From an uncultured bacterium (GTDB lineage: Bacteria > CAIWAD01): DNA of 64,000 bases. The notes under the pieces were generated by a model, which was not told the DNA's origin, ran no database searches, and saw only the letters and a program-made list of their open reading frames with translations. The translations under genes were made by a program, and so were the position numbers. Of this stretch, positions 101-53,047 are shown piece after piece. Location of the stretch: assembly GCA_903910645.1 (NCBI GenBank), contig CAIWAD010000040.1, positions 14,768 to 78,767 of the forward strand. Reading direction: 5' to 3'. Position 1 is the first letter of the stretch. Every line of letters starts with the position of its first letter.

Positions 101-3037
101 TTACTTCACCAACAAGAGCTTCACCGTGCGCGTGCTTCCTTCCTGCCGTGCCCGCGCCAGGTACAGGCCGCTGGGCAGGGCGCTGCCATCCACCTGAAGG
201 CTCGTCTCCCCGGCGGGAAGGATGCCCTGATGCAGGACGCGCACCACCCGCCCCTGCATGTCCACCAGTTCCACCGTGGTGAAGGCCGCCCGCGCACTGG
301 CCAGGCGCAGGGTGGTGAAGGGGTTGAAAGGATTGGGCGCGGCGGGCAGCAAGCGGAAAGCCTTAGCAGCGCTGGCAGGATCCAGGTCCAGGAAAGGCAG
401 GCTCCAGCGACACAGGGAGCCGTTGGCGTTCCAGGTGGTGGCGCCATCACTCAGCTCCAGCCACAAGTCCACATCCATGCCGTACCAGTCGGGCAGGTTC
501 ACGCCACTGGACAGGGCGGACCAGGAATCGCCCTCCACCGGCCCCGTCCACATGGCGGCGCCATCCACCATCACGGAGGCACTAAGCGCGTGCTCCGCGC
601 CATTGGCCAGATCCAGTCCCACCGCGCCATTCAGCCAGTCGGGAATGAAGCCATCTGTGGCGCCTGGCAAATGGCCCAGCACCTCCACGGTGCCACAAGG
701 TGAGAACTGGCCGTGGCGAATGGTCGGGGCCACCGCTTCCGCCGTGCAGGGCAGGCTGCCGCAGGCATTGCCCAGATTCAGGTCGCAGGCCGTGGTGCCG
801 GCCATCTGGGGCGCGCAGCGCACGGTGACGGTGTGGAACTCCCCGGGGGCAAGGCTGTAGAAGGCGCCGCTTTGCACCGTGAATTCCTGGCAGGGGCTGC
901 TCACCGTGCCCGCCAGGGGCACCGTGCCCGTGTTCATCAGGGTGAAGCTCAGCTGATCGTGCCCGTCCACCAGCAGGGTGCCGAAATCCAGGGAGGCGGG
1001 CTCCACGCCGCAACTGGGCTGGGCCGTGGCCACCCAGGCCGCGCCGCCGGAGCTGTGATAGGCAGGAAATGGCTGGGTGAAGGATTGCCAGGGACCACCC
1101 GTGCCCAGGTTCCAAGCATAGGCGTCCACGCCATCGTCCCCGCGTGTAGCCGTCAGGAAGACCATGTTGTTTCCCACCGCCATGGCCCGGGCGCTGGAAT
1201 TGCTGCCCGGGTGGGAAGCGGCCAGGAAGGTGGTGGCGCCGCTCTCCACATCAATGGAATAGAGTCCGGTGGGGTTGCCGTACTCCGTGTAGCCGTAGAG
1301 CAGGCCGTCCTGGGCATTGCCGTCCAGGGCGAAGAAGCGGAAGCCCGAGGCCCCCAGGTCCAGCGCCAGCTCGCACTGGCCGCTGGCCAGGTCCACCCGG
1401 TAGATGCCCATGGGGCTGGCGAAGTTGGCGAAGCCGTAGAGTTCGCCGTTCACCCAACCCAGGCCGTGCAGGGCCACGCTGGTGGTGCACAGATAGGTGG
1501 TGGCGCCGGAGCTCAGGTTGTACTGGTGAATCTGGGTGGTGAAGGCTCCCTGGCACACATAAAGCGTGCCCTCCGGCGTGGCCGCCGCCCCGGCGATGTC
1601 GAAGGCCGTGTGGGCGTTCCAGGTCACATTGGGGAAGCCTCCCAAGTCCGTGGAGAGAGGCGCCACGCTGGCGTCCTCCAGGCCGGCGAAGAGCAGGCCG
1701 GTGACGGGCGTGGAGGCGGAGCACAGGATGTCCGGGCAGCTGCTGCCTGTCTCGATGGTGCAGGTGTGAGGGCCGGGCAGGCTGTTCTGGAACTGCACCA
1801 GGAAGTCCTGGCTGGCGCCGGGACCCAGATCATAGGCGCTGGCGCCCTGGATGGAAAAGCCCTGATCCGTGCATGCGCCCAGGCTCACCGTGCCACTCAA
1901 ATTGCCCTGCCCCGTGTTGGTGATGGTGAAGGGCATGGCGCTTACCACTTCGCCCGGCACTTCGCCGAAATCCAGGCTGGTGGTGCTCAGGCCGCAGGCC
2001 GGCTGCAGAGCCACCTCCGCAGTGCACTCCACCGGCGCGCAACTTCCACCAGATGCCACCTGACAGGTGAACTGACCGGCGCCTGAAGACAGGAAACGCA
2101 GAGTCACGGTCTGGCTCTGGCCCGCTCCCAGGCTATAGGTGGCGCCACTTTGCACACTGAACTCCGGGCAGTTCTCCGACACCGTGCCTGACAGGGTGCC
2201 TCCACCCGTGTTGGTGATGGTGAAGGTGCGCGTCACCGCGTTTCCCGGGGCCACTTCACCGAAATCCAGGCTGGAGGGGCTTACCTGGCATTGGGGAGTG
2301 GGCAGGGGCACCCAGGTGGCGCCGCCATTGGCGCTGAACTGGGGAAAAGGCTGCGTGAAGCTGGTCCAGGGGCCGCCCGTGCCCAGGTCCCAGGCCTGCA
2401 GGCCCACACCGATGCTGCCCTGGGTGGCGCACACATAGACCGTGTTGTTGCCCACGGCCAGGGCGCGGCCCATGGTGTTGTCCGCCGGGAAACTGCCCGT
2501 CACTGGCGTGATCTGGCCCGTGGCCGGATTGATGGAGTGCAGGCCGTCGGGACTGCCGTACTCGGTGTAGCCGTAAAGCAGGCCATCCACGGGGTTGAAG
2601 TCCAGCCCGAAGTAGCGGTAGCCCTGCTGGCTGGTGTCCACCACCAGCGTGCACAGGCCCGTGGTGGTGTTGATGGAATAGATGCCCATGGGCGTGGCGT
2701 AGTTGGCGAAGCCGTAGAGCACGCCGTTGCCGTAGCCAAGGGCATGGATGGCCACGCTGGCGGTGCACAGGACCTGTGCCGGGGCGTTGACGGAATTCAT
2801 GCGCAGGATCTGGGTGGTGAAGAAACCCGTGGCCAGATAGATGCTGCCCGCGGGGGTGGCGGCGGCGCCGTTCACGCTCTGCACGGCGTGGTCGGTCCAA
2901 CTGACGGCGGGAAAGCCCGACAGATCCGAGCTGCGCATGGCCGATCCCGTGTCCTCCAGCCCCACGAAGAGGCGCTGGGCGTGGAGCGGCAACGCGACAG
3001 CCGCGCACAGCGCAAGACCCAATGCAAGCTGTTTCAT
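101..3037 (-). CDS. Large secreted repeat protein (978 aa). It has an N-terminal signal peptide and two tandem copies of a beta-propeller-like 'LLYGYTEYG' repeat module. It also has ASH/'choice-of-anchor D'-like LDFGEV..TNTG domains and a C-terminal ~85-aa sorting domain resembling the T9SS CTD / FlgD-Ig-like fold
   Basis: ORF track; ATG at 3035-3037 with GGGAG 8 nt upstream; signal peptide MKQLALGLALCAAVALPLHAQ; internal duplication visible in translation; C-terminus NPFNPFTTL...SGLYLARARQEGSTRTVKLLLVK resembles por-secretion C-terminal sorting domains. Confidence 0.6.
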   Translation of the reverse strand: MKQLALGLALCAAVALPLHAQRLFVGLEDTGSAMRSSDLSGFPAVSWTDHAVQSVNGAAATPAGSIYLATGFFTTQILRMNSVNAPAQVLCTASVAIHALGYGNGVLYGFANYATPMGIYSINTTTGLCTLVVDTSQQGYRYFGLDFNPVDGLLYGYTEYGSPDGLHSINPATGQITPVTGSFPADNTMGRALAVGNNTVYVCATQGSIGVGLQAWDLGTGGPWTSFTQPFPQFSANGGATWVPLPTPQCQVSPSSLDFGEVAPGNAVTRTFTITNTGGGTLSGTVSENCPEFSVQSGATYSLGAGQSQTVTLRFLSSGAGQFTCQVASGGSCAPVECTAEVALQPACGLSTTSLDFGEVPGEVVSAMPFTITNTGQGNLSGTVSLGACTDQGFSIQGASAYDLGPGASQDFLVQFQNSLPGPHTCTIETGSSCPDILCSASTPVTGLLFAGLEDASVAPLSTDLGGFPNVTWNAHTAFDIAGAAATPEGTLYVCQGAFTTQIHQYNLSSGATTYLCTTSVALHGLGWVNGELYGFANFASPMGIYRVDLASGQCELALDLGASGFRFFALDGNAQDGLLYGYTEYGNPTGLYSIDVESGATTFLAASHPGSNSSARAMAVGNNMVFLTATRGDDGVDAYAWNLGTGGPWQSFTQPFPAYHSSGGAAWVATAQPSCGVEPASLDFGTLLVDGHDQLSFTLMNTGTVPLAGTVSSPCQEFTVQSGAFYSLAPGEFHTVTVRCAPQMAGTTACDLNLGNACGSLPCTAEAVAPTIRHGQFSPCGTVEVLGHLPGATDGFIPDWLNGAVGLDLANGAEHALSASVMVDGAAMWTGPVEGDSWSALSSGVNLPDWYGMDVDLWLELSDGATTWNANGSLCRWSLPFLDLDPASAAKAFRLLPAAPNPFNPFTTLRLASARAAFTTVELVDMQGRVVRVLHQGILPAGETSLQVDGSALPSGLYLARARQEGSTRTVKLLLVK

Positions 3038-33647: not shown

Positions 33648-33790
33648 CGCAGCTCTCGTCTTCGAGCTTCGAATATCCTTCACAGCGCAAACGGTTCGCG
33701 GATTCCCGCTCTGCCAGCCCTGAACAAGCCGGGATCTCTCTTCAGCACAGAGTCCCGCTTTCGCGGGTATGACGGGTCAGCGTCCCGGAC
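33648..33790 (+). repeat. Dispersed structured intergenic repeat, copy A (core GTCCCGCTTTCGCGGGTATGACGGG)
   Basis: Aligned by eye against copy B over ~130 bp. Confidence 0.65.
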
Positions 33791-43211: not shown

Positions 43212-43819
43212 GGATTAAGGGCCTTGAACTCGCAGCGGCGATTCTTGGACCAGGCGGACTCGTCATGGCCGGCGTCCACAGGCTGGGACTTGCCGAAGGA
43301 GATGGTCTCGAAACGGGCTTCGTCCAGGCCCAGGTTCACGAAATATCCCTTCACGGCATTGGCGCGCTTGTCGCCCAGGGCCAGGTTGTAGGCCACGCTG
43401 CCATTCTCATCGCAATGGCCTTCCAGCTTCACGCGCAGATCGCCATAAGTGCGCAGCAGGTCCCCGTGGGAGGCCAGCGTGGCGCGGGTGTCCTCGCGCA
43501 GCTCGAAGCGGTCGAAATCGAAATAGACAGCACCCAGGCTGCCAACGGCATTGGCGCGTGCCAAACGGACCTGCTCCTCGGCCTGGGCCTTGGCGCGCTC
43601 GGCGGCGGCCAGGCGCTCGGCCTCGGCGGCGGCGGCGGCACGCTGGGCCTCAAGACGGGCAGCCTCATCGGCGGCAGCCTTGGCGGCGGCATCGTCCACC
43701 TGCTCCGACTGGGTCAGCTGCTGCTCGGCAGCGGGATCCACCTTCTTCTTGCATGCCGTGCTGCCCAGTCCGGCGGCCACCACCAGGGCGACCAACAGGG
43801 CGGTACGCAGAGTGTTCAT
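43208..43819 (-). CDS. pal: Peptidoglycan-associated lipoprotein (OmpA-family C-terminal domain)
   Basis: Lipobox LGSTAC; Ala/Glu-rich linker; OmpA-like domain (VYFDFDRFELREDTRATL...LEGHCDENGSVAYNLALGDKRANAV). Confidence 0.8.
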   Translation of the reverse strand: MNTLRTALLVALVVAAGLGSTACKKKVDPAAEQQLTQSEQVDDAAAKAAADEAARLEAQRAAAAAEAERLAAAERAKAQAEEQVRLARANAVGSLGAVYFDFDRFELREDTRATLASHGDLLRTYGDLRVKLEGHCDENGSVAYNLALGDKRANAVKGYFVNLGLDEARFETISFGKSQPVDAGHDESAWSKNRRCEFKALNP

Positions 43820-45216
43820 GCGTCGAACTCCTCGATTTGGGGCCAGGAAAAGATCTTGGCCGGGTTCAGAATATTGTTTGGGTCAAAAAGCCGTTTGATG
43901 TTCATCTGCAGCTGCTCACTTTGCGGAGACAGCTCAATGCCAATATAAGGCTGCTTCCAGCAACCCACACCATGTTCGGCGGTGATGGTTCCCCCAAAAT
44001 CCACGGCCAGCCGGAAGATTTCCTCCACCACCTGCCACATGCGCGCCAGGGAAGCCTCTCCCTCCTCCCTGGACAACACATTCACATGCAGATTGCCGTC
44101 CCCAAGATGTCCGTATGCCAGCACATGCACGCCCTTTGCTTGTCCCAGGCGTCGACACGCCTCCAGGCATTCCTGCAACCGATCCAGGGGCACGGCGATG
44201 TCTTCCGACAATTTCTGTGCGAAGCGTTCCCGCGTGGTGTGCGACAACCTGCGGCGAACCTCCCACAAACGCGCGGCCTTTTCGCCGCCTTCGGCCATCC
44301 ACACATCCAGGGCTCCAGCCTCCCCGCACAGATGTCCCAGACGCTCCGCCAGCTCCTCCGCCTCAGCGCGCCCGCCGTCCGCCTCCAGGAGTAGAAGGCT
44401 GCGGCACCCCTCTGGCAGAGCCATGGGCAGGTCACCGCGCACCAGCTCCACCGCCGCCTCGTCCATGAATTCCAGGGCGGAAGGCGTCAGTCCTTCCCGG
44501 TTGATGGTGGCGGCCAGAGCGCAGGCGGAGGCCGAATCGGGCAGCAGGGCCAACAGGGTAAGGGTGCGGGCCGGCTTGGGCTGCAGGCGCAACACCATGC
44601 GCGTGATCACCGCCAGGGTGCCTTCACTGCCAATGAGCAAATCGCGCAGGCTGTAGCCCGCCACACCCTTGCGCGTGCGGGGGCCACAAGTAATGACCTC
44701 GCCGGAAGGCAGCACGGCCTCCAGTTGCAACACATAGGCCCGCGTGACGCCGTACTTCACACAGCGTGGCCCGCCGGCGTCCTCCGCCACATTGCCGCCC
44801 AGGCTGCTGGACTCCCATGATGCAGGATCAGGCGGGTAGAAGAGGCCATGGGGGGCGGCGGCCTCCTGCAATTGGAAGTTGATCACTCCCGGCTCCACCA
44901 CGGCCCAGCGGTTGACGGGATCGATCTCCAGAATGCGGTTGAACCGCGCCATGCTGAGCACCACTCCGCCCCGCACAGCAAGCGCGCCACCGGACAATCC
45001 GGTCCCCGCTCCACGAGGCGTCACCGGCACCTTGTGGCGATTGGCCCAGCGCAGCAAGGCCTGGATGTCCGCCACGCTGCGGGCCTCCACCACTGCATGG
45101 GGAAGGTAGGGCACCTTCAGCTCGTCGGCGGCAAAGGCGACGCGGCGCTCGTCCAAAATGAGCGAAGCCGCTCCCACGGCGGCCTCCAGCTCGCGCAGCT
45201 GTTCAGCGCTCAACAT
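43816..45216 (-). CDS. FAD-linked oxidase (glycolate oxidase GlcD / D-lactate dehydrogenase family)
   Basis: FAD-binding PCMH domain motifs (PRGAGTGLSGGA...), C-terminal FAD-oxidase domain; GGAGG RBS; start-stop overlap with pal. Confidence 0.8.
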   Translation of the reverse strand: MLSAEQLRELEAAVGAASLILDERRVAFAADELKVPYLPHAVVEARSVADIQALLRWANRHKVPVTPRGAGTGLSGGALAVRGGVVLSMARFNRILEIDPVNRWAVVEPGVINFQLQEAAAPHGLFYPPDPASWESSSLGGNVAEDAGGPRCVKYGVTRAYVLQLEAVLPSGEVITCGPRTRKGVAGYSLRDLLIGSEGTLAVITRMVLRLQPKPARTLTLLALLPDSASACALAATINREGLTPSALEFMDEAAVELVRGDLPMALPEGCRSLLLLEADGGRAEAEELAERLGHLCGEAGALDVWMAEGGEKAARLWEVRRRLSHTTRERFAQKLSEDIAVPLDRLQECLEACRRLGQAKGVHVLAYGHLGDGNLHVNVLSREEGEASLARMWQVVEEIFRLAVDFGGTITAEHGVGCWKQPYIGIELSPQSEQLQMNIKRLFDPNNILNPAKIFSWPQIEEFDA

Positions 45217-45337
45217 CCAGCCTCCAAGACTCTCTCAGCAGCTCTCCTGCCCGAGCCGCGGGTTCTTTCAATGCGCAGCGCATGTCTCCTCTCCAGTCCG
45301 CCAGGGCGGAGGCCTTCAACGCTTCGCATTGAAGGTG

Positions 45338-45768
45338 AAGGCAACCTTTCTGTCGCGCCAGAAAGGTTGCGCCAAAGAGCGCTCTCCAAGACCCGGCGCG
45401 CTGAAGCGGACGGCTTCCCGGCCGTCCTTGGCAGCGCGCATTGAGCCCAAGGGGACGCCATGGCAGTTGGTTCCGGCCTGTCGGCCGTCACCGGGAATTC
45501 CCGCCACCGCAACATCTCCCTGGATTCGGGCCTTGAGATCCTACTCGGCGCAAATGCAACCTTTCTGTCGCGCCAGAAAGGTTGCGCCAAAGAGCGCTCT
45601 CCAAGCCCCAGCGCGCTGAAGCGGCCGGCCTCCCGGCCGTCCTTGGCAGCGCGCATTGCGCCCAAGGTGACGCCATGGCAGTTGGTTCCGGCCTATCGGC
45701 CGTCACCGAGAATTCCCGCCACCCAACATCTCTCGGACTCGAGTCTTGAGATCCTTCTCAGCCAGTGG
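45338..45768. repeat. Tandem direct repeat, 2 copies of 215 bp at ~90% identity. Each unit holds a 10-bp-stem hairpin AACCTTTCTG-TCGCGC-CAGAAAGGTT and the palindrome AGAGCGCTCT
   Basis: The period was measured between identical landmarks (45343 vs 45558; 45501 vs 45716); non-coding. Confidence 0.8.
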
Positions 45769-45930
45769 CTCTCGTTCGCGGGTTCGCTGCGCGAGTCCTC
45801 AATCGTGTCATCCCAGCCAAGGCTGGGATCTCGCGACAAAACAGATTCCCGCTTTCGCGGGAATGACAGGTCCAATTCAAGCTTTTCAACGCATCAGCTC
45901 CCCTCCTCAAGATGTGCGACTCGAGGAGGA
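45716..45930 (+). repeat. Dispersed structured intergenic repeat, copy B (contains ATTCCCGCTTTCGCGGGAATGACAGG at 45845-45870)
   Basis: Shares ordered modules with copies at 7375, 15970, 33648, 39185 and 52897. Confidence 0.7.
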
Positions 45931-45946
45931 TCGATGACCAGGGGGG

Positions 45947-47179
45947 CTACTTTCCTGCGAATTCCCTCTCATAGAGACCATGCAGGAAGCGCATCAGCTC
46001 TTCCTCGCAGGAAGCAAGCGTCAAGCCCCGACGCTCTTTCACAATGCGTGCCGTGGCCAGGGCTTTTTCCAAATCATATGCGTCAATGCCATCCTGGGGT
46101 CCGCCCCAGGAGAAGGGCGGAACTTCCTTTGGGGGAAAACCGCCGCCCCAGATGTTGGCGAACAGGCCCACCACGGTGCCGGTGTTGAACATGGTGTTGA
46201 TGCCGGTCTTGGCGTGGTCGCCCATCATCAGGCCCACGAAGCGCTGGCCCGTGTCCACTTTCTGGCCGCGCAGGCTGACCTGCACTGCGCCGTAGTTGTT
46301 CTTCAGGTCGCTGTTGTTGGTGTCCGCCCCCAGGTTGGTCCATTCACCCAGGTAGGCGTGGCCCAGGAATCCGTCGTGCTGCTTGTTGGCGTATCCCTGC
46401 AGGATGCTCTCCGCCACCTCACCGGCCACACGGCAACAGGGCCCCAGGTGGTTGCCACCCAACAGGCGCGTGCCAGCCTTCAACCGGGATCCCTCGCCAA
46501 TGAAGCACGGCCCTTCCACCACGCAGAAAGGGCCAATCTGCACGCCGCGGTCAATGACAATGGGTCCATGGGAGGCATCCAGCACACAATAGGGCGCCAC
46601 GGTGGCGCCGGCCTCGATGTGGATGCGTTCGGCGGCCAGGAAGCGCACACTCAAGTCCACGCCTTCCGGTGGAGCGGCGTCTCCCAGGAGTTGCAGGCGC
46701 TCTTCCAGATATGGGAAATCCGCCTCCGCGGCTTGCGGCAGCACATGCACGAGGTCCCACAGGCGCTGGGCCAACACCATGCCCTCCGGGCATTCCATGA
46801 TGTCCAGCTCCGGCCCTCCGCCATCCAGGTGGGCCAGGCCATCCGCCTCCAGGCGCGCCGCCATCAGCACATCATCCTCGGAAAGAATGCCCTGACCGGG
46901 TTCAAGGGAGAGCACGGCCTCGGCGTCCAGCTCCAACAGGCGGCCGTTCACCATCAGGATGTCCCCACCCTCCTCAAACTCAGGCTGGCCCAACCCCAGA
47001 CGCGCTGCCACCGCCTGCAAGGGTCCTCGGCACAGGCCGCCGGAGGCCACCATTCCCAGGCGCCATTCCAGGCGCTCCCGCAGGGTGCCCAGCCCTGTGC
47101 GCAGGTCCCACACAGGGCGCAGTTCCGTCAAGGGATAGAAATCCCGCACCTGGGGATCTTCGAAGAGGATCAGTCTCAT
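45947..47179 (-). CDS. Left-handed beta-helix (hexapeptide-repeat) protein with an N-terminal nucleotidyltransferase-like region (GlmU-like putative sugar-phosphate nucleotidyltransferase/acyltransferase)
   Basis: Hexapeptide repeats in the C-terminal half (...EWTNLGADTNNSDLKNNYGAVQV...GINTMFNTGTVVG...); ATGA overlap with parB. Confidence 0.5.
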   Translation of the reverse strand: MRLILFEDPQVRDFYPLTELRPVWDLRTGLGTLRERLEWRLGMVASGGLCRGPLQAVAARLGLGQPEFEEGGDILMVNGRLLELDAEAVLSLEPGQGILSEDDVLMAARLEADGLAHLDGGGPELDIMECPEGMVLAQRLWDLVHVLPQAAEADFPYLEERLQLLGDAAPPEGVDLSVRFLAAERIHIEAGATVAPYCVLDASHGPIVIDRGVQIGPFCVVEGPCFIGEGSRLKAGTRLLGGNHLGPCCRVAGEVAESILQGYANKQHDGFLGHAYLGEWTNLGADTNNSDLKNNYGAVQVSLRGQKVDTGQRFVGLMMGDHAKTGINTMFNTGTVVGLFANIWGGGFPPKEVPPFSWGGPQDGIDAYDLEKALATARIVKERRGLTLASCEEELMRFLHGLYEREFAGK

Positions 47180-48063
47180 GAGGCGTCCATGGCTTGCAGC
47201 AGTTCCACCAGGCGATCCAGCTCCTCCCGGGTGTGATACTCAATGCGGATCTGCCCGCGGTTGCGGTTGGGGCTGATGCTCACGCGGGCACCCAGGCAAC
47301 CGCAGAGGTTTTCCTCCGCCTGCAGGATGTCGAAGGGCTTCACCACCGCCGGCGCGGGTTGGGCCTCACGCTGGCGGCGCACCAGCTCCTCCAGTTGGCG
47401 GACGCTTAAATCCCGCTTCACGCAGAGCTGCCAGCAGCGGATTTTCTCATCGTCCGAGCCCAGGCCCAGCAACACCTTGGCGTGGCCGAAGGAGATCTTG
47501 CCCTCCTTCAGACTGACCTTGATCACCGTGGGCAGCTTGTTCAGGCGCAGCAGATTGCTCACCGCCGGGCGGCTCATGCCCAGGGTCTGGCCCAATTCCT
47601 CCTGGCTCATGCCGTGCTCCTCAATTAGCACGCGCAGACCGTTGGACAAGTCCAGGGGGTGCAAATCCTCGCGCTGGATGTTCTCCAACAGGGCCAGCTT
47701 CATCAACCCGCCTTCGTCCGGCCGCTCCCGCACAAGGGCGGGAATGGTCTTGCGTCCGGCAAGCTGGCTGGCGCGCCAGCGGCGCTCGCCGGCGATGAGC
47801 GTGTACAGGCCGCCGTCCTCGAAGACCAGCACGGGCTGCAACACGCCATTGGCGCGGATGCTCTGGGCCAGCTCCTCCAGCTCGGCGGATTCAAAGTCCC
47901 GTCGGGGCTGCTGGCGGTTGCGATTGATCAGTTCCAGGGGCAGCTGATGCACGCGCTCGCCGTCGGGAAGAGAAGGCTCGGTGGCTTGCGTGGCAAGAGC
48001 GGTGTCGGCGGGCTTTTGAATGAGGGCCGATAGGCCTCTACCCAGTGGTTTGGACCGATTCAT
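47176..48063 (-). CDS. parB: Chromosome partitioning protein ParB/Spo0J
   Basis: ParB box motifs (...YTLIAGERRWRASQLAG...), HTH (MSQEELGQTLGMSRPAVSNLLRL); ATG 48061-48063. Confidence 0.9.
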   Translation of the reverse strand: MNRSKPLGRGLSALIQKPADTALATQATEPSLPDGERVHQLPLELINRNRQQPRRDFESAELEELAQSIRANGVLQPVLVFEDGGLYTLIAGERRWRASQLAGRKTIPALVRERPDEGGLMKLALLENIQREDLHPLDLSNGLRVLIEEHGMSQEELGQTLGMSRPAVSNLLRLNKLPTVIKVSLKEGKISFGHAKVLLGLGSDDEKIRCWQLCVKRDLSVRQLEELVRRQREAQPAPAVVKPFDILQAEENLCGCLGARVSISPNRNRGQIRIEYHTREELDRLVELLQAMDAS

Positions 48064-48814
48064 CAAGGATCTCCTGGGCCAGGGCGATGTAGTTCTGGCT
48101 GCCCGGGCTGCCCGCGTCGTAGAGCAGGATGGGCTTGCCGTGGCTGGGGGCCTCGCCCAGCTTCACATTGCGGCGGATGATGCTGGAGTACATGCGGTCG
48201 CCGAAGTGGTCCTCCACTTCCTTGCGCACCATGTTGCACAGATTCAGGCGGCTGTCGTACATGGTAAGCACCACGCCACGCACCACCAGCTGCGGGTTCA
48301 GGCTTTCGCGCACCAGCTCGATGGTGTTCAGCAGCTGGCTTAGACCCTCCAGTGCGTAGTACTCGGCCTGGATGGGGATGATCACGCCGTCCGCCGCGCA
48401 CAGGGTGTTCACGGTGAGCAGGCTCAAGGAGGGTGGGCAGTCAATGAGGATGTACTCATAGTCCGCCGCCACCTGGGCCAGTGCTTTCTTCAGACGATAC
48501 TCGCGGCCAAGCGCGGCCACCAGCTCCACTTCCGCCCCCACCAGACGCATGCTGCTGGGCAGGATGTCCAGCCCCTCGATCTGGGTGGGATGAATGGCCT
48601 CCCGCACTTGGGAGGGATCCAGCAGGCATTCGTAGACGCAGGGACGCCCGTCCTCCCGCTCCAACCCGCTGCCACTGGAGGCATTGGCCTGGGGATCCAT
48701 GTCCACCAGAAGCACACGGCGCTCCGAGACAGCCAGGCAGGCGGCAAGATTGACGGCGGTGGTGGTTTTGCCAACTCCACCCTTTTGATTGGCAAACGCA
48801 ATGATTTCAGCCAT
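48038..48814 (-). CDS. parA: Chromosome partitioning ATPase ParA/Soj
   Basis: Deviant Walker A IIAFANQKGGVGKTTTAVNLAA; ATG 48812-48814; overlaps parB by 26 nt. Confidence 0.9.
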   Translation of the reverse strand: MAEIIAFANQKGGVGKTTTAVNLAACLAVSERRVLLVDMDPQANASSGSGLEREDGRPCVYECLLDPSQVREAIHPTQIEGLDILPSSMRLVGAEVELVAALGREYRLKKALAQVAADYEYILIDCPPSLSLLTVNTLCAADGVIIPIQAEYYALEGLSQLLNTIELVRESLNPQLVVRGVVLTMYDSRLNLCNMVRKEVEDHFGDRMYSSIIRRNVKLGEAPSHGKPILLYDAGSPGSQNYIALAQEILDESVQTTG

Positions 48815-49170
48815 GGCCGAATATAGGAAGGGGGAAGCGCCTTCCGCAGGGGCATCCCGCGCGGATGGACGCCCAGCCACGGATTTGGAGGTTTGCGTCA
48901 AGGCCAATGGGCGATGTTCTGTTTAAGATCTGTTCAGTGGTGACCGATTTGCAACATTTCGCAGAATCTTCTGTTCATTTTCATAACATTTTCACCATGA
49001 AATGGGCGGCAGAAACATCCAATTATCAGCAACATCCATAGTCTATTCATACAATTTTTAACGATTTCTATCGGGAATTTCCACCGACTGGCCTGATTCT
49101 TGCCAATATCTCTCCATCAACCCGCTTGGCGGGCTTGCACACAGCACATTTTCAACCATCGGAGTCCATC
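48815..49170. promoter_or_regulatory. AT-rich intergenic region between parA (leftward) and the first plus-strand gene, holding a strand-orientation switch point
   Basis: Local GC is visibly far below the ~69% background (runs such as TTCATTTTCATAACATTTTCACCATGAAAT, CAATTTTTAACGATTTCTATCGG); no canonical DnaA box or parS was found. Confidence 0.4.
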
Positions 49171-50658
49171 ATGAAACAGGCGCTTGTCTTGTCCCTGGTG
49201 CTTGGGCTGTCCCAGGCGGTTCTGGCAGAGGAATACTCCCAATGGAAGGCGTCGCAGGGGCCCTCGGGCGCCCAGCGCAGCTTCCTTTCCGTGAGCAACG
49301 GGGCCGTGGAGGCCCATGTGGGTGAACTGGGCACAGGCAACACGGGCCGCTTCACCATCGGCACGGGGGCGGGCGAATACCTGCTTTACGGCCACGGTGG
49401 CGACCCGTGGAGCAGCTATGTGCGCATCCGTGTGGATGGTTTGGTGTACGCCCCGGAGGGCGGCGGTCTCTTTGATGTGGCCATGTTGCCCGTGGCGGGA
49501 CCGGCCATTGTGGGCAATGGCATCGTCACATCGTGGAGTGCCGATGGCGTGATGCTCACACAGACCCTGACGCCGGTGATGGTGAACGGCGAAGGCACTG
49601 TGGCCATTGATTACGAGGTATTGAACACCAGCACCTATGGACGCGAGGTCTCGGTGATGCTGGAAATGGACACCATGGTGAACTGGAATGACGCGGCGCC
49701 CATTTCCACCAGCAATGGCTACATCGCTGTGGAAAGCTGCTATACCGGCGGTCAGGTGCCCAACACCTGGCAGGCCTTTGAAGAAAGCCCCACCCAGGAT
49801 CCCAGTCTATTGGTGGGTTGTGGCATCCTGAACGGCTTCGGCGCCACCCTACCGGACTTCGCAGCCTTTGGTGCCTGGGGCAATGTGTACGGTGGCCCCT
49901 TCGACTTTGTTTGCTCGGGCTACGGCTACGGCGACAGCGGCTGCCTGCTGCGCTGGAACGCCGGCCTGATGATGCCGGGCCAGGGCGATTCCTATAAGAC
50001 CTTTTACGGAACCTGCACCGAATACACGGTGCCTGGTGAGCTAAGCCTGAGTCTGGGCGGCACCACGGCCCTGAGCTGCCAGAATGGCGAGATTGAGCCC
50101 AATCCCTTTGATGTGAACCTGCTGGTGACGAATACGGGTGGCGAGCTTTGCCACGATGTGGTGGCCACCGTCTACCCGGGCGCTGGCTTGATCGGCGGCG
50201 CGCCGGTGTGGATTGGCGACCTGGCCCCCGGTGGCGTGGGCGCGGCCTCCTTCTTCATCACGGCAATGGAGCCCTATTGCGACTACTGGGGCTTCTACAC
50301 GGTGGAAGTGACATCGGCGGACTGCCCGGGCAATGTGATCAGCCGGGAGATCTGGGTGCCCTGCTGCGATGCTGTGAACGCACCTGAGCAGGTTCTTGCC
50401 TTCCAGCTGGGCGCGGCCCATCCCAATCCCTTCAACCCGGTGACCACCCTCTCCTTCACCATGGCGGAGACCGGTGCGGCCACCCTGGCGGTGTTCAACC
50501 TGGCGGGCGTGGAAGTGGCCCGTCCCTTCAACGGCCTGGCGGAGCGGGGCGAGCACGCGCTGACCTTCGACGCCAGCGGCCTGCCCAGCGGCATCTACCT
50601 CTACACCCTGAGCACGGCCCAGGGCGTGCAGACGAGGAAGATGATCCTGACCAAGTAG
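49171..50658 (+). CDS. Secreted protein with a C-terminal T9SS-CTD/FlgD-Ig-like sorting domain (cargo paralog 1)
   Basis: ATG 49171 with GGAG 7 nt upstream; signal peptide MKQALVLSLVLGLSQAVLA; C-terminus ...HPNPFNPVTTLSFTMAETGAATLAVFNLAGVEVARPFNGLAERGEHALTFDASGLPSGIYLYTLSTAQGVQTRKMILTK. Confidence 0.65.
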   Translation: MKQALVLSLVLGLSQAVLAEEYSQWKASQGPSGAQRSFLSVSNGAVEAHVGELGTGNTGRFTIGTGAGEYLLYGHGGDPWSSYVRIRVDGLVYAPEGGGLFDVAMLPVAGPAIVGNGIVTSWSADGVMLTQTLTPVMVNGEGTVAIDYEVLNTSTYGREVSVMLEMDTMVNWNDAAPISTSNGYIAVESCYTGGQVPNTWQAFEESPTQDPSLLVGCGILNGFGATLPDFAAFGAWGNVYGGPFDFVCSGYGYGDSGCLLRWNAGLMMPGQGDSYKTFYGTCTEYTVPGELSLSLGGTTALSCQNGEIEPNPFDVNLLVTNTGGELCHDVVATVYPGAGLIGGAPVWIGDLAPGGVGAASFFITAMEPYCDYWGFYTVEVTSADCPGNVISREIWVPCCDAVNAPEQVLAFQLGAAHPNPFNPVTTLSFTMAETGAATLAVFNLAGVEVARPFNGLAERGEHALTFDASGLPSGIYLYTLSTAQGVQTRKMILTK

Positions 50659-50696
50659 CAACCCCGTGCGGCACCCCAACCGCATCAACCTGGGAG

Positions 50697-50763: not shown

Positions 50764-51681
50764 ATGCATCGTGCCACGACACCTGTCCTGACCCTGGCGG
50801 CCGCCCTGCTTTTGGGGAGCTTGGCAACCGCCCAGGCGGAGACCATCACCCTGCGCAGTGGCAATGGCCCTGCCGGTGGCCCCGACGCTGTCCTGACCTT
50901 TTTTCAAGGTCCACTGGACGGCGAGTTCAGTGTTCCCTTCACGCCCATTGACTACGCCAGCGCCCTGGCTGGCCCGCCGGCAGAGATCCTGACCCAGCTC
51001 AACGGCGCATGGACGCCCACGCTGGTGGCGGATCCCCTGGCCCAATGGGTTTCGGATAGCCAATCCGGTGCATGGAGCGGCAGCACAAACCTTTACGCCA
51101 TTCCTTTCGTGGTAAGCAGCGCGGTGGTCAGCTCCGCCACGCTGGACTTTCACTTCCTGTGTGACAACTGGGTGGGCGAGTACTACGCCAACATCAACGA
51201 GGGACTCCACCTCAATGGGTCGAGTGTGGCTGGCACCATTGGCGGCAACTACGCCAACGAGACCAATTGGTACAGCATCCCCGTCACCGGCCTGGTGAAC
51301 CCCGGCCCCAATGTGCTCTATGTGCTGTCCAGCGATGTGGGCGGACCTGGTGGCATTGTGTTCAGCGCCACCCTGCGCATCAATGGCGATGGCACCGTGG
51401 ACGCGCCGGAGAGCGCGCAGGCTTTCCAGCTGGGCGAAGCCTATCCCAATCCCTTCAACCCGGTGACCACCCTTTCCTTCACCATGGCTGAGACTGGCCC
51501 CGCCACGCTGGCGGTGCACAATCTGGCGGGTGTGGAAGTGGCCCGTCCCTTCAGCGGCATGGCGGAGCGTGGAAGCCACGAGCTGACCTTCGACGCCTCG
51601 GCCCTGCCCAGCGGCATCTACCTCTACACCCTGAGCACGGAGAGCGGGGTGCAGACGCGCAAGATGATCCTGACCAAATAG
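50764..51681 (+). CDS. Secreted protein with a near-identical C-terminal sorting domain (cargo paralog 2)
   Basis: GGAGAG RBS; signal peptide; C-terminal 85 aa >90% identical to the preceding gene's CTD; unrelated N-terminal domain. Confidence 0.65.
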   Translation: MHRATTPVLTLAAALLLGSLATAQAETITLRSGNGPAGGPDAVLTFFQGPLDGEFSVPFTPIDYASALAGPPAEILTQLNGAWTPTLVADPLAQWVSDSQSGAWSGSTNLYAIPFVVSSAVVSSATLDFHFLCDNWVGEYYANINEGLHLNGSSVAGTIGGNYANETNWYSIPVTGLVNPGPNVLYVLSSDVGGPGGIVFSATLRINGDGTVDAPESAQAFQLGEAYPNPFNPVTTLSFTMAETGPATLAVHNLAGVEVARPFSGMAERGSHELTFDASALPSGIYLYTLSTESGVQTRKMILTK

Positions 51682-51714
51682 CGTCCTTGCGGCACCCCTG
51701 CCGCTTCTACCTGG

Positions 51715-52896: not shown

Positions 52897-53047
52897 TGCC
52901 CCGTACTCAAGTCTCGTGGCAGGAAGACACGGTGGGACAAGCCTCTGTCAATCCCGCGAAAGCGGGAAGCTGTGGCGAGAAAAGACCCCCGCCTTCGCTG
53001 GGAAGACAGCGCTCATTTTCGAGAGTTGCTGATGGGTGGTCGAGTTC
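52897..53047 (-). repeat. Dispersed structured intergenic repeat, copy C (inverted; the plus strand reads CTGTCAATCCCGCGAAAGCGGGAAG)
   Basis: The reverse complement aligns with copies B and D, including GCGCTGTCTTCCCAGCGAA. Confidence 0.65.

Follow-up and report, generated by a model that had tools for sequence, protein, structure and literature searches.

The 64,000-nucleotide stretch of DNA analysed here (the window) carries a 215-bp tandem repeat at the junction between a parA-parB-NTP_transf gene block and the glcD and tol-pal genes. We hold, with slightly better than even confidence, that this array is a palindrome-rich intercistronic insert which was locally duplicated into a variable-number tandem repeat (VNTR), which would be co-transcribed with its neighbours and which would have effects of the REP/BIME kind at most. 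The array adds one more example to a kind of feature that is already known, and does not amount to a new kind of system.

A tandemly repeated unit in a 730-bp intercistronic gap

A single long-period array was detected in the 64 kb by Tandem Repeats Finder, at 45341-45759, with a period of 215, 2.0 copies, 92% matches and a score of 729. A repeat search of the window aligned 45338-45508 with 45553-45723 at 95% identity, and blastn aligned unit with unit at 93% over 202 nt. The array consists of two head-to-tail units on the minus strand, namely a glcD-proximal unit P (215 nt, 45341-45555) and a glcD-distal unit D (213 nt, 45556-45768), which are about 92-93% identical. An earlier reading of this DNA from its sequence alone (the sequence-only reading) had described two head-to-tail 215-bp units of ~90% identity, and this description was borne out by the Tandem Repeats Finder (92%) and blastn (93%) values, both above the ~70% line that the reading had drawn for itself. 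Units D and P differ by 13 substitutions and two 1-nt indels, or ~8% of positions, located mostly in the glcD-distal part, and have one 53-nt end that is identical between them. Unit D is the more diverged edge copy. The units abut directly; neither a target-site duplication at their boundary nor a direct repeat in the flanks is seen. In having at least two head-to-tail copies of a unit longer than ~10 bp, the array agrees with an intergenic VNTR (minisatellite).

The gap that harbours the array is exactly 730 bp long (45217-45946), as the sequence-only reading had stated, and all surrounding genes are on the minus strand. A Pfam scan of seven ORFs flanking the gap identified the upstream gene as a sugar nucleotidyltransferase with hexapeptide repeats (NTP_transf_4 + Hexapep, GlmU-like; 45947-47179, minus strand), which is also present in the conspecific contigs and is the last gene of the block formed with parA (48907-48038, minus strand) and parB (48066-47176, minus strand). 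The downstream gene encodes a glcD-like FAD-linked oxidase (43816-45216, minus strand, by Pfam) and is followed by pal (OmpA), tolQ, tolR, tolA (TonB_2), tolB and a TPR gene. The linkage of partition genes, an FAD oxidase and Tol-Pal in an apparent single operon (43816-48907) is itself unusual.

In the direction of transcription, the gap contains a post-stop hairpin, a REPIN-like element, a 38-nt spacer, unit D, unit P and a 124-nt leader. The post-stop hairpin (45902-45929, minus strand), located by inverted-repeat search, has a 10-bp stem, CCTCCTCGAG..CTTGAGGAGG, and lies 18 nt past the NTP_transf stop codon. The unique glcD leader (45217-45340, minus strand) has 0 differences from that of a 98.8%-identical strain (L135), and carries a small hairpin at 45313-45335, a long-range inverted repeat (45267-45280/45320-45333) and a GGAGG five nt before the ATG.

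Both units are rich in inverted repeats. Each contains a perfect hairpin with a 12-bp stem, GCAACCTTTCTG / CAGAAAGGTTGC, and a 6-nt loop, found by inverted-repeat search, which closes unit D at 45556-45585 (consensus pairs at columns 189-218) and unit P at 45341-45370 (also seen in the consensus fold) in gene orientation. The sequence-only reading had placed a perfect hairpin in each unit, which was correct except that the stem is of 12 bp and not 10 bp. The 10-bp palindrome that it had noted in each unit, AGAGCGCTCT, was located in both, at 45376-45385 and 45591-45600, and a long GCGCGC...GCGCGC hairpin is also present in both. A GGCCGG-CCTC-CCGGCC inner hairpin, earlier assigned to each unit, was found in unit D (45556-45768) only; unit P has GGACGGCTTCCCGGCCGTCC at that place. 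Conversely, unit P carries a perfect palindrome, CGGGAATTCCCG, which is changed to CGGGAATTCTCG in unit D.

The REPIN-like element beside unit D (copy B, 45806-45872) was identified both as a member of a repeat family and by inverted-repeat search. It is one of three intergenic copies in the window (33712-33778, 45806-45872 and 52946-53012, the last, copy C, being reversed), so that the dispersed-element copy reported earlier in the gap is indeed present along with two others. Its two hairpin-forming arms of ~26 nt each lie in inverted orientation, GTCATTCCCGCGAAAGCGGGAAT ... ATCCCAGCCTTGGCTGGGATGAC. On the minus strand, the first hairpin of copy B together with CTGTTTTGTC resembles an intrinsic terminator after NTP_transf (site 45864-45845). 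An Rfam match to FtrB (27 bits) fell on this element and was rejected, being far under the threshold of 66. As a short imperfect palindrome with dispersed copies, copy B belongs with the REP/BIME/REPIN elements; the 215-bp unit does not.

The sequence-only reading had gone further and proposed that the tandem repeat was an expansion of this dispersed element, fused to it, with a third unit replaced by or diverged into copy B. A related possibility is that the unit is a MITE inserted twice. The array does lie only 38 nt from the element, and the unit has an outer stem reminiscent of imperfect terminal inverted repeats. We nevertheless give little credence to either version. The two features are adjacent, with ~38 nt between them, and not fused; the unit resembles neither the REPIN-like element nor the sequences that flank the other two copies of it; and the 215 nt past unit D are only 27% identical to the unit, which is the random level, leaving no trace of a partial triplication. 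The match that had been seen between the 3' ends of the units and the 5' flank of copy B adds no independent evidence, since that flank is the end of the second unit itself. The exact head-to-tail arrangement, with no target-site duplication between the units, also speaks against repeated insertion, as does the failure to find dispersed copies in the window, the conspecific and related loci, one metagenome scan and the called proteins.

These searches found no other copy of the unit in the 64 kb, in the ~150 kb covered at conspecific and related loci, or through the one metagenome scan. A covariance model of the unit, which scored 261 bits on unit P and 225 bits on unit D, detected no further copy in the window and 12 conspecific or related loci. 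Among the matches listed for the pattern AACCTTTCTG-N3-9-CAGAAAGGTT in a genome collection there were chance hairpins only, mostly from low-G+C genomes, and none had the unit. Nothing was found by blastn against plasmids and phages or with one viral-contig pattern.

Unit number in conspecifics and the junction in relatives

Copy-number variation, which the sequence-only reading had proposed to look for, was found at this locus. Conspecific metagenome contigs were retrieved by exact look-up of the two proteins flanking the gap. The window and contig L001 share a gap length of 730 bp, as against 945 bp (730 + 215) in L002 and L005, where the extra unit is always of the P type, and both P units are identical to each other within each of these 3-unit contigs. 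Four short-read contigs (L003, L004, L006 and L007) end inside or beside the array, which is a systematic assembly break point for this genome. A metagenome scan with a longer hairpin pattern had as its sole find the same locus in another strain (L135), 98.8% identical over 3.3 kb, which carries D and P in a 730-bp gap and with SNPs of its own. Copy number thus varies between two and three units, and possibly more, among conspecifics, although the count of three comes from short-read scaffolds, in which an assembly-graph loop could miscount because the 53-nt end is identical in D and P.

An assembly artefact behind the repeat, or behind its difference in copy number, has to be considered here, as all the data are metagenome assemblies, several of them break in the array, and the identical P units of the 3-unit contigs are what a twice-traversed graph loop would give. 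We regard this as only a slight chance. The D+P arrangement was recovered by at least three independent assemblies, one of them from a strain with 1.2% divergence, and D and P are ~8% apart, a state not derivable from duplicating a single copy; the repeat itself is therefore not an artefact. As to the third unit, the junction of a P end with a P start could not be built from the reads of a D+P genome if the k-mer exceeded the shared 53 nt.

In the reading that we favour, a first local duplication would have arisen by illegitimate recombination, using the short TTGC/TGCGC homology found where the units end, and unequal crossing-over or replication slippage between the units would then have changed their number.

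Homologues of NTP_transf at 69-86% identity were traced to their contigs (eight contig sets). All eight sets keep the order parA-parB-NTP_transf-glcD-pal-tolQ-tolR. The wider order parA-parB-NTP_transf(GlmU-like)-glcD-pal-tolQ-tolR-tolA-tolB, with overlapping or tight junctions, is kept in relatives (L129-L138) down to 69% protein identity. In L137 and L138, NTP_transf and glcD lie 18 bp apart. The spacing is 55 bp for L129 and L130, 84 bp for L134, 85 bp for L132 and L133, 138 bp for the P0008 contig, 176 bp for L131 and 186 bp for L136. None of these junctions (18-186 bp) is related in sequence to the gap of the window, and no set among the eight has the array. As the relatives keep the gene order with short, unrelated junctions, the array appears to be a species-specific insertion or expansion and not a conserved regulatory region.

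The shortest junction, of 18 bp, occurs in the most distant syntenic relatives (L137 and L138), and the closer ones have unrelated junctions of 55-186 bp. The ancestral arrangement therefore seems to have been a single uninterrupted transcription unit from parA to tol-pal with a tight junction, to which the 730-945 bp would be a late addition. Three relatives have long imperfect palindromes of their own in this junction, mutually unrelated, with arms of 60 nt (L131, 6239-6377), 33 nt (L136, 4322-4456) and 14 nt (L134, 2357-2455). Such unrelated palindromes suggest that the junction has repeatedly gained structured inserts, and the NTP_transf|glcD junction seems to be a place where they repeatedly land or grow.

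The gap had been taken in the sequence-only reading as the place where the promoter of the glcD/tol-pal operon should be. The 18-186 bp junctions of the relatives argue against this expectation, and the idea of an obligatory tol-pal promoter is weakened if the insert is late and species-specific. A sigma-70-like promoter was not found on either strand, with a consensus that may not be the one used by this lineage, and the Bacteroidetes -7 motif TAnnTTTG was not enriched in the window.

Coding potential, predicted fold and possible roles of the unit

The 215-bp unit is clearly non-coding. Its period is not a multiple of 3, D and P differ by two 1-nt indels, a search of 5.8 billion proteins with the translations of both open frames matched this locus alone, and a Pfam scan of six ORFs gave no match. 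In the best frame, 7 of the 13 substitutions fall at third positions, which is not significant. The suggestion that the region is non-coding and its ORFs repeat-driven was upheld by the frame, indel, Pfam and protein-search evidence alike, and no conserved protein was found. The contrary proposal, that the units encode small proteins such as a type I toxin-antitoxin or MIRU-like coupled ORFs, could draw on two frames, one per strand, that are open across the whole unit, and on a 170-aa ORF annotated here by the gene caller that ends 5 nt into glcD. It is close to refuted, for in addition to the period, the indels and the lack of homologues or a Pfam family, the ORF translations abound in Arg, Pro and Ala and lack any hydrophobic segment; a type I toxin-antitoxin system was rejected for want of a hydrophobic small ORF.

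The predicted fold of each unit is a closed multi-branch structure with the 12-bp hairpin after it. The minimum free energy (MFE) was ~-122 kcal/mol for unit P, the type that is doubled in the 3-unit contigs, and ~-108 kcal/mol in gene orientation for unit D. Fold energies were compared with those of dinucleotide shuffles, and the z-scores in gene orientation were -6.8 for unit P and -4.6 for unit D; on the opposite strand they were -4.3 and -3.3, respectively. Three coding controls gave -1.4 to +1.9 over both strands. Folding of each unit, which the sequence-only reading had suggested to predict, thus yielded strong structure in both. The consensus of five distinct unit variants has 76 pairs, including 7 invariant G-U pairs that can form in gene orientation only, and almost all nucleotides of the unit take part in the predicted fold. 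Columns 10-32 pair with 164-188 to form the outer stem, a bulged and imperfect inverted repeat that does not include the terminal 30-nt hairpin.

Compensatory changes were seen in 0 of the 76 pairs, among five near-identical variants that give such a comparison low power; the one-sided changes kept 6 pairs as wobbles and broke ~5. The fold thus draws its support from thermodynamics only. When the window is compared with L135, 8 of 428 positions (1.9%) in the units and 25 of 894 third codon positions (2.8%) in the neighbouring genes are different, so that the divergence of the units between strains appears about neutral and compatible with little or no constraint. The stability and strand asymmetry of the fold exceed what would be expected of a random duplicated spacer, and the unit may serve, or may once have served, some function of its own; the case for any such function being at the RNA level and on the operon strand is made mainly by the asymmetry.

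The main rival to our reading follows from these properties. The unit could be, or could derive from, a new structured ncRNA of ~185 nt in which the 12-bp hairpin would be a U-poor terminator, present either as a recently tandem-duplicated sRNA gene or as a cis-acting leader of glcD-tol-pal. The very stable, strand-asymmetric fold with its 7 G-U pairs in gene orientation, the participation of nearly all nucleotides in it and the perfect hairpin at the end of each unit are all in keeping with this idea. Tandem paralogous sRNA genes are also known elsewhere, as in PrrF1/PrrF2, AbcR1/AbcR2 and the NsiR1 arrays, and the array resembles them in having near-identical structured intergenic units in tandem, each ending in a hairpin. 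However, each unit of those genes has its own promoter and terminator, and the genes are shared between species. Here, the search for a promoter-like site was negative and the unit leaves no room for one outside the fold, no U-tract or T-run follows the unit hairpin, and the unit is absent from all the relatives and was found at no other locus. Rfam (15) returned 0 matches at the gathering score, and even at E up to 10 the best hit on the unit reached 18 bits as against thresholds of 52-93, so that no family can be assigned. Given also the lack of covariation and the near-neutral divergence, we consider the ncRNA unlikely, although it deserves to be taken seriously.

A bolder form of the same idea is slightly more doubtful still. 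It would make the unit an undescribed lineage-restricted structured RNA, with a three-branch fold plus the 12-bp hairpin, functional only in gene orientation, recently gained at the parAB / tol-pal junction and now being amplified, such that the number of units would tune the transcription or mRNA reaching glcD-tol-pal.

The unit might alternatively act as DNA. Its palindromes (the 12+6+12 bp hairpin, AGAGCGCTCT and, in unit P, CGGGAATTCCCG) could form an iterated protein-binding site, either an operator array or, close to parAB, a centromere-like site resembling sopC of plasmid F. Each unit has several perfect palindromes, the array is ~1.4 kb downstream of parB, and no canonical parS-like site (TGTTNCACGTGNAACA, up to 2 mismatches) was found in the 64 kb, despite the chromosomal-type parA and parB. 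On the other side, the array is missing in all relatives with the same parAB, one gene separates it from parB, its copy number is variable, and its edge unit is decaying, as seen in the change of CGGGAATTCCCG to CGGGAATTCTCG in unit D; the strand asymmetry of the fold would, moreover, favour RNA over duplex DNA. We see only a slim chance of such a role, a little slimmer than that of an expanded dispersed element. Its variant as a replication origin was rejected, as the gap lacks DnaA boxes and the GC skew does not turn there.

We return, then, to a locally duplicated palindromic insert. Under this explanation, the array would be transcribed with the operon parA-parB-NTP_transf | glcD-pal-tolQRA-tolB from the minus strand, and each unit would fold on its own into the closed multi-branch structure and the 12-bp hairpin. 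At most, the array would then serve as a barrier to 3'-5' exonucleases or as a partial terminator or pause site, in the manner of REP/BIME palindromes, and such a barrier or terminator could loosen the coupling of parAB-NTP_transf expression to that of glcD-tol-pal. Its effect on fitness is probably small.

Relation to known repeats and significance

According to a review of small bacterial repeats (PMC3184786), REP/BIME clusters occur in transcribed intergenic regions and affect mRNA stability, and their known effects further include termination and recombination. The array is like the REP/BIME elements of enterobacteria and pseudomonads, and like REPINs, in being G+C-rich, palindromic, transcribed intergenic DNA of a kind that can occur in tandem clusters, assuming that it is indeed co-transcribed. 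It differs in scale and distribution, as REP units are of 20-40 nt and number tens to hundreds per genome, whereas no dispersed copy of the 215-bp unit was found.

Mycobacterial interspersed repetitive units (MIRU) were first described in the senX3-regX3 operon, as that review cites Supply et al. (in PMC3184786). In common with MIRU VNTRs, the array has head-to-tail repeats within an operon between co-oriented genes, a strain-variable copy number and no conserved protein product. In contrast, MIRUs are of 40-100 bp, occupy dozens of loci and often contain small ORFs that couple translation, whereas the unit described here is of 215 bp, was found at one locus, is predicted to be strongly self-folding and has no single frame across the units. 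The MITE-like BOX, RUP, SPRITE and Correia repeats are closer in size (~100-200 nt), with predicted stable RNA folds, intergenic positions and co-transcription with their neighbours; unlike the single-locus array, they are dispersed, and they have terminal inverted repeats and often target-site duplications, the latter of which the array lacks.

The practical value of the array is modest. It offers a ready strain-typing marker, as a VNTR, for an uncultured lineage of the FCB group whose nearest named relative among the matches is Candidatus Delongbacteria, and it accounts for the breaking of short-read assemblies of this species at this place. The unrelated palindromic inserts of the sister lineages at one and the same junction amount to a small natural experiment on how far the parAB-to-tol-pal unit tolerates large structured spacers. 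If the unit were a functional RNA, the locus would represent a very recent birth and amplification of a structured RNA, though no result requires this.

Two other repeats were observed in the window. A 286-nt direct repeat (50374-50659 and 51397-51682, 84% identity, spacing 1023 nt) lies in a region that, in the conspecific contigs, encodes two neighbouring Por_Secre_tail (T9SS-sorted) paralogues, 495 and 305 aa long. The ORF at 101-3037 (minus strand, 978 aa) has internal repeats within 1166-2870, with spacings of 1278 and 141 nt, which suggests a protein with repeated domains.
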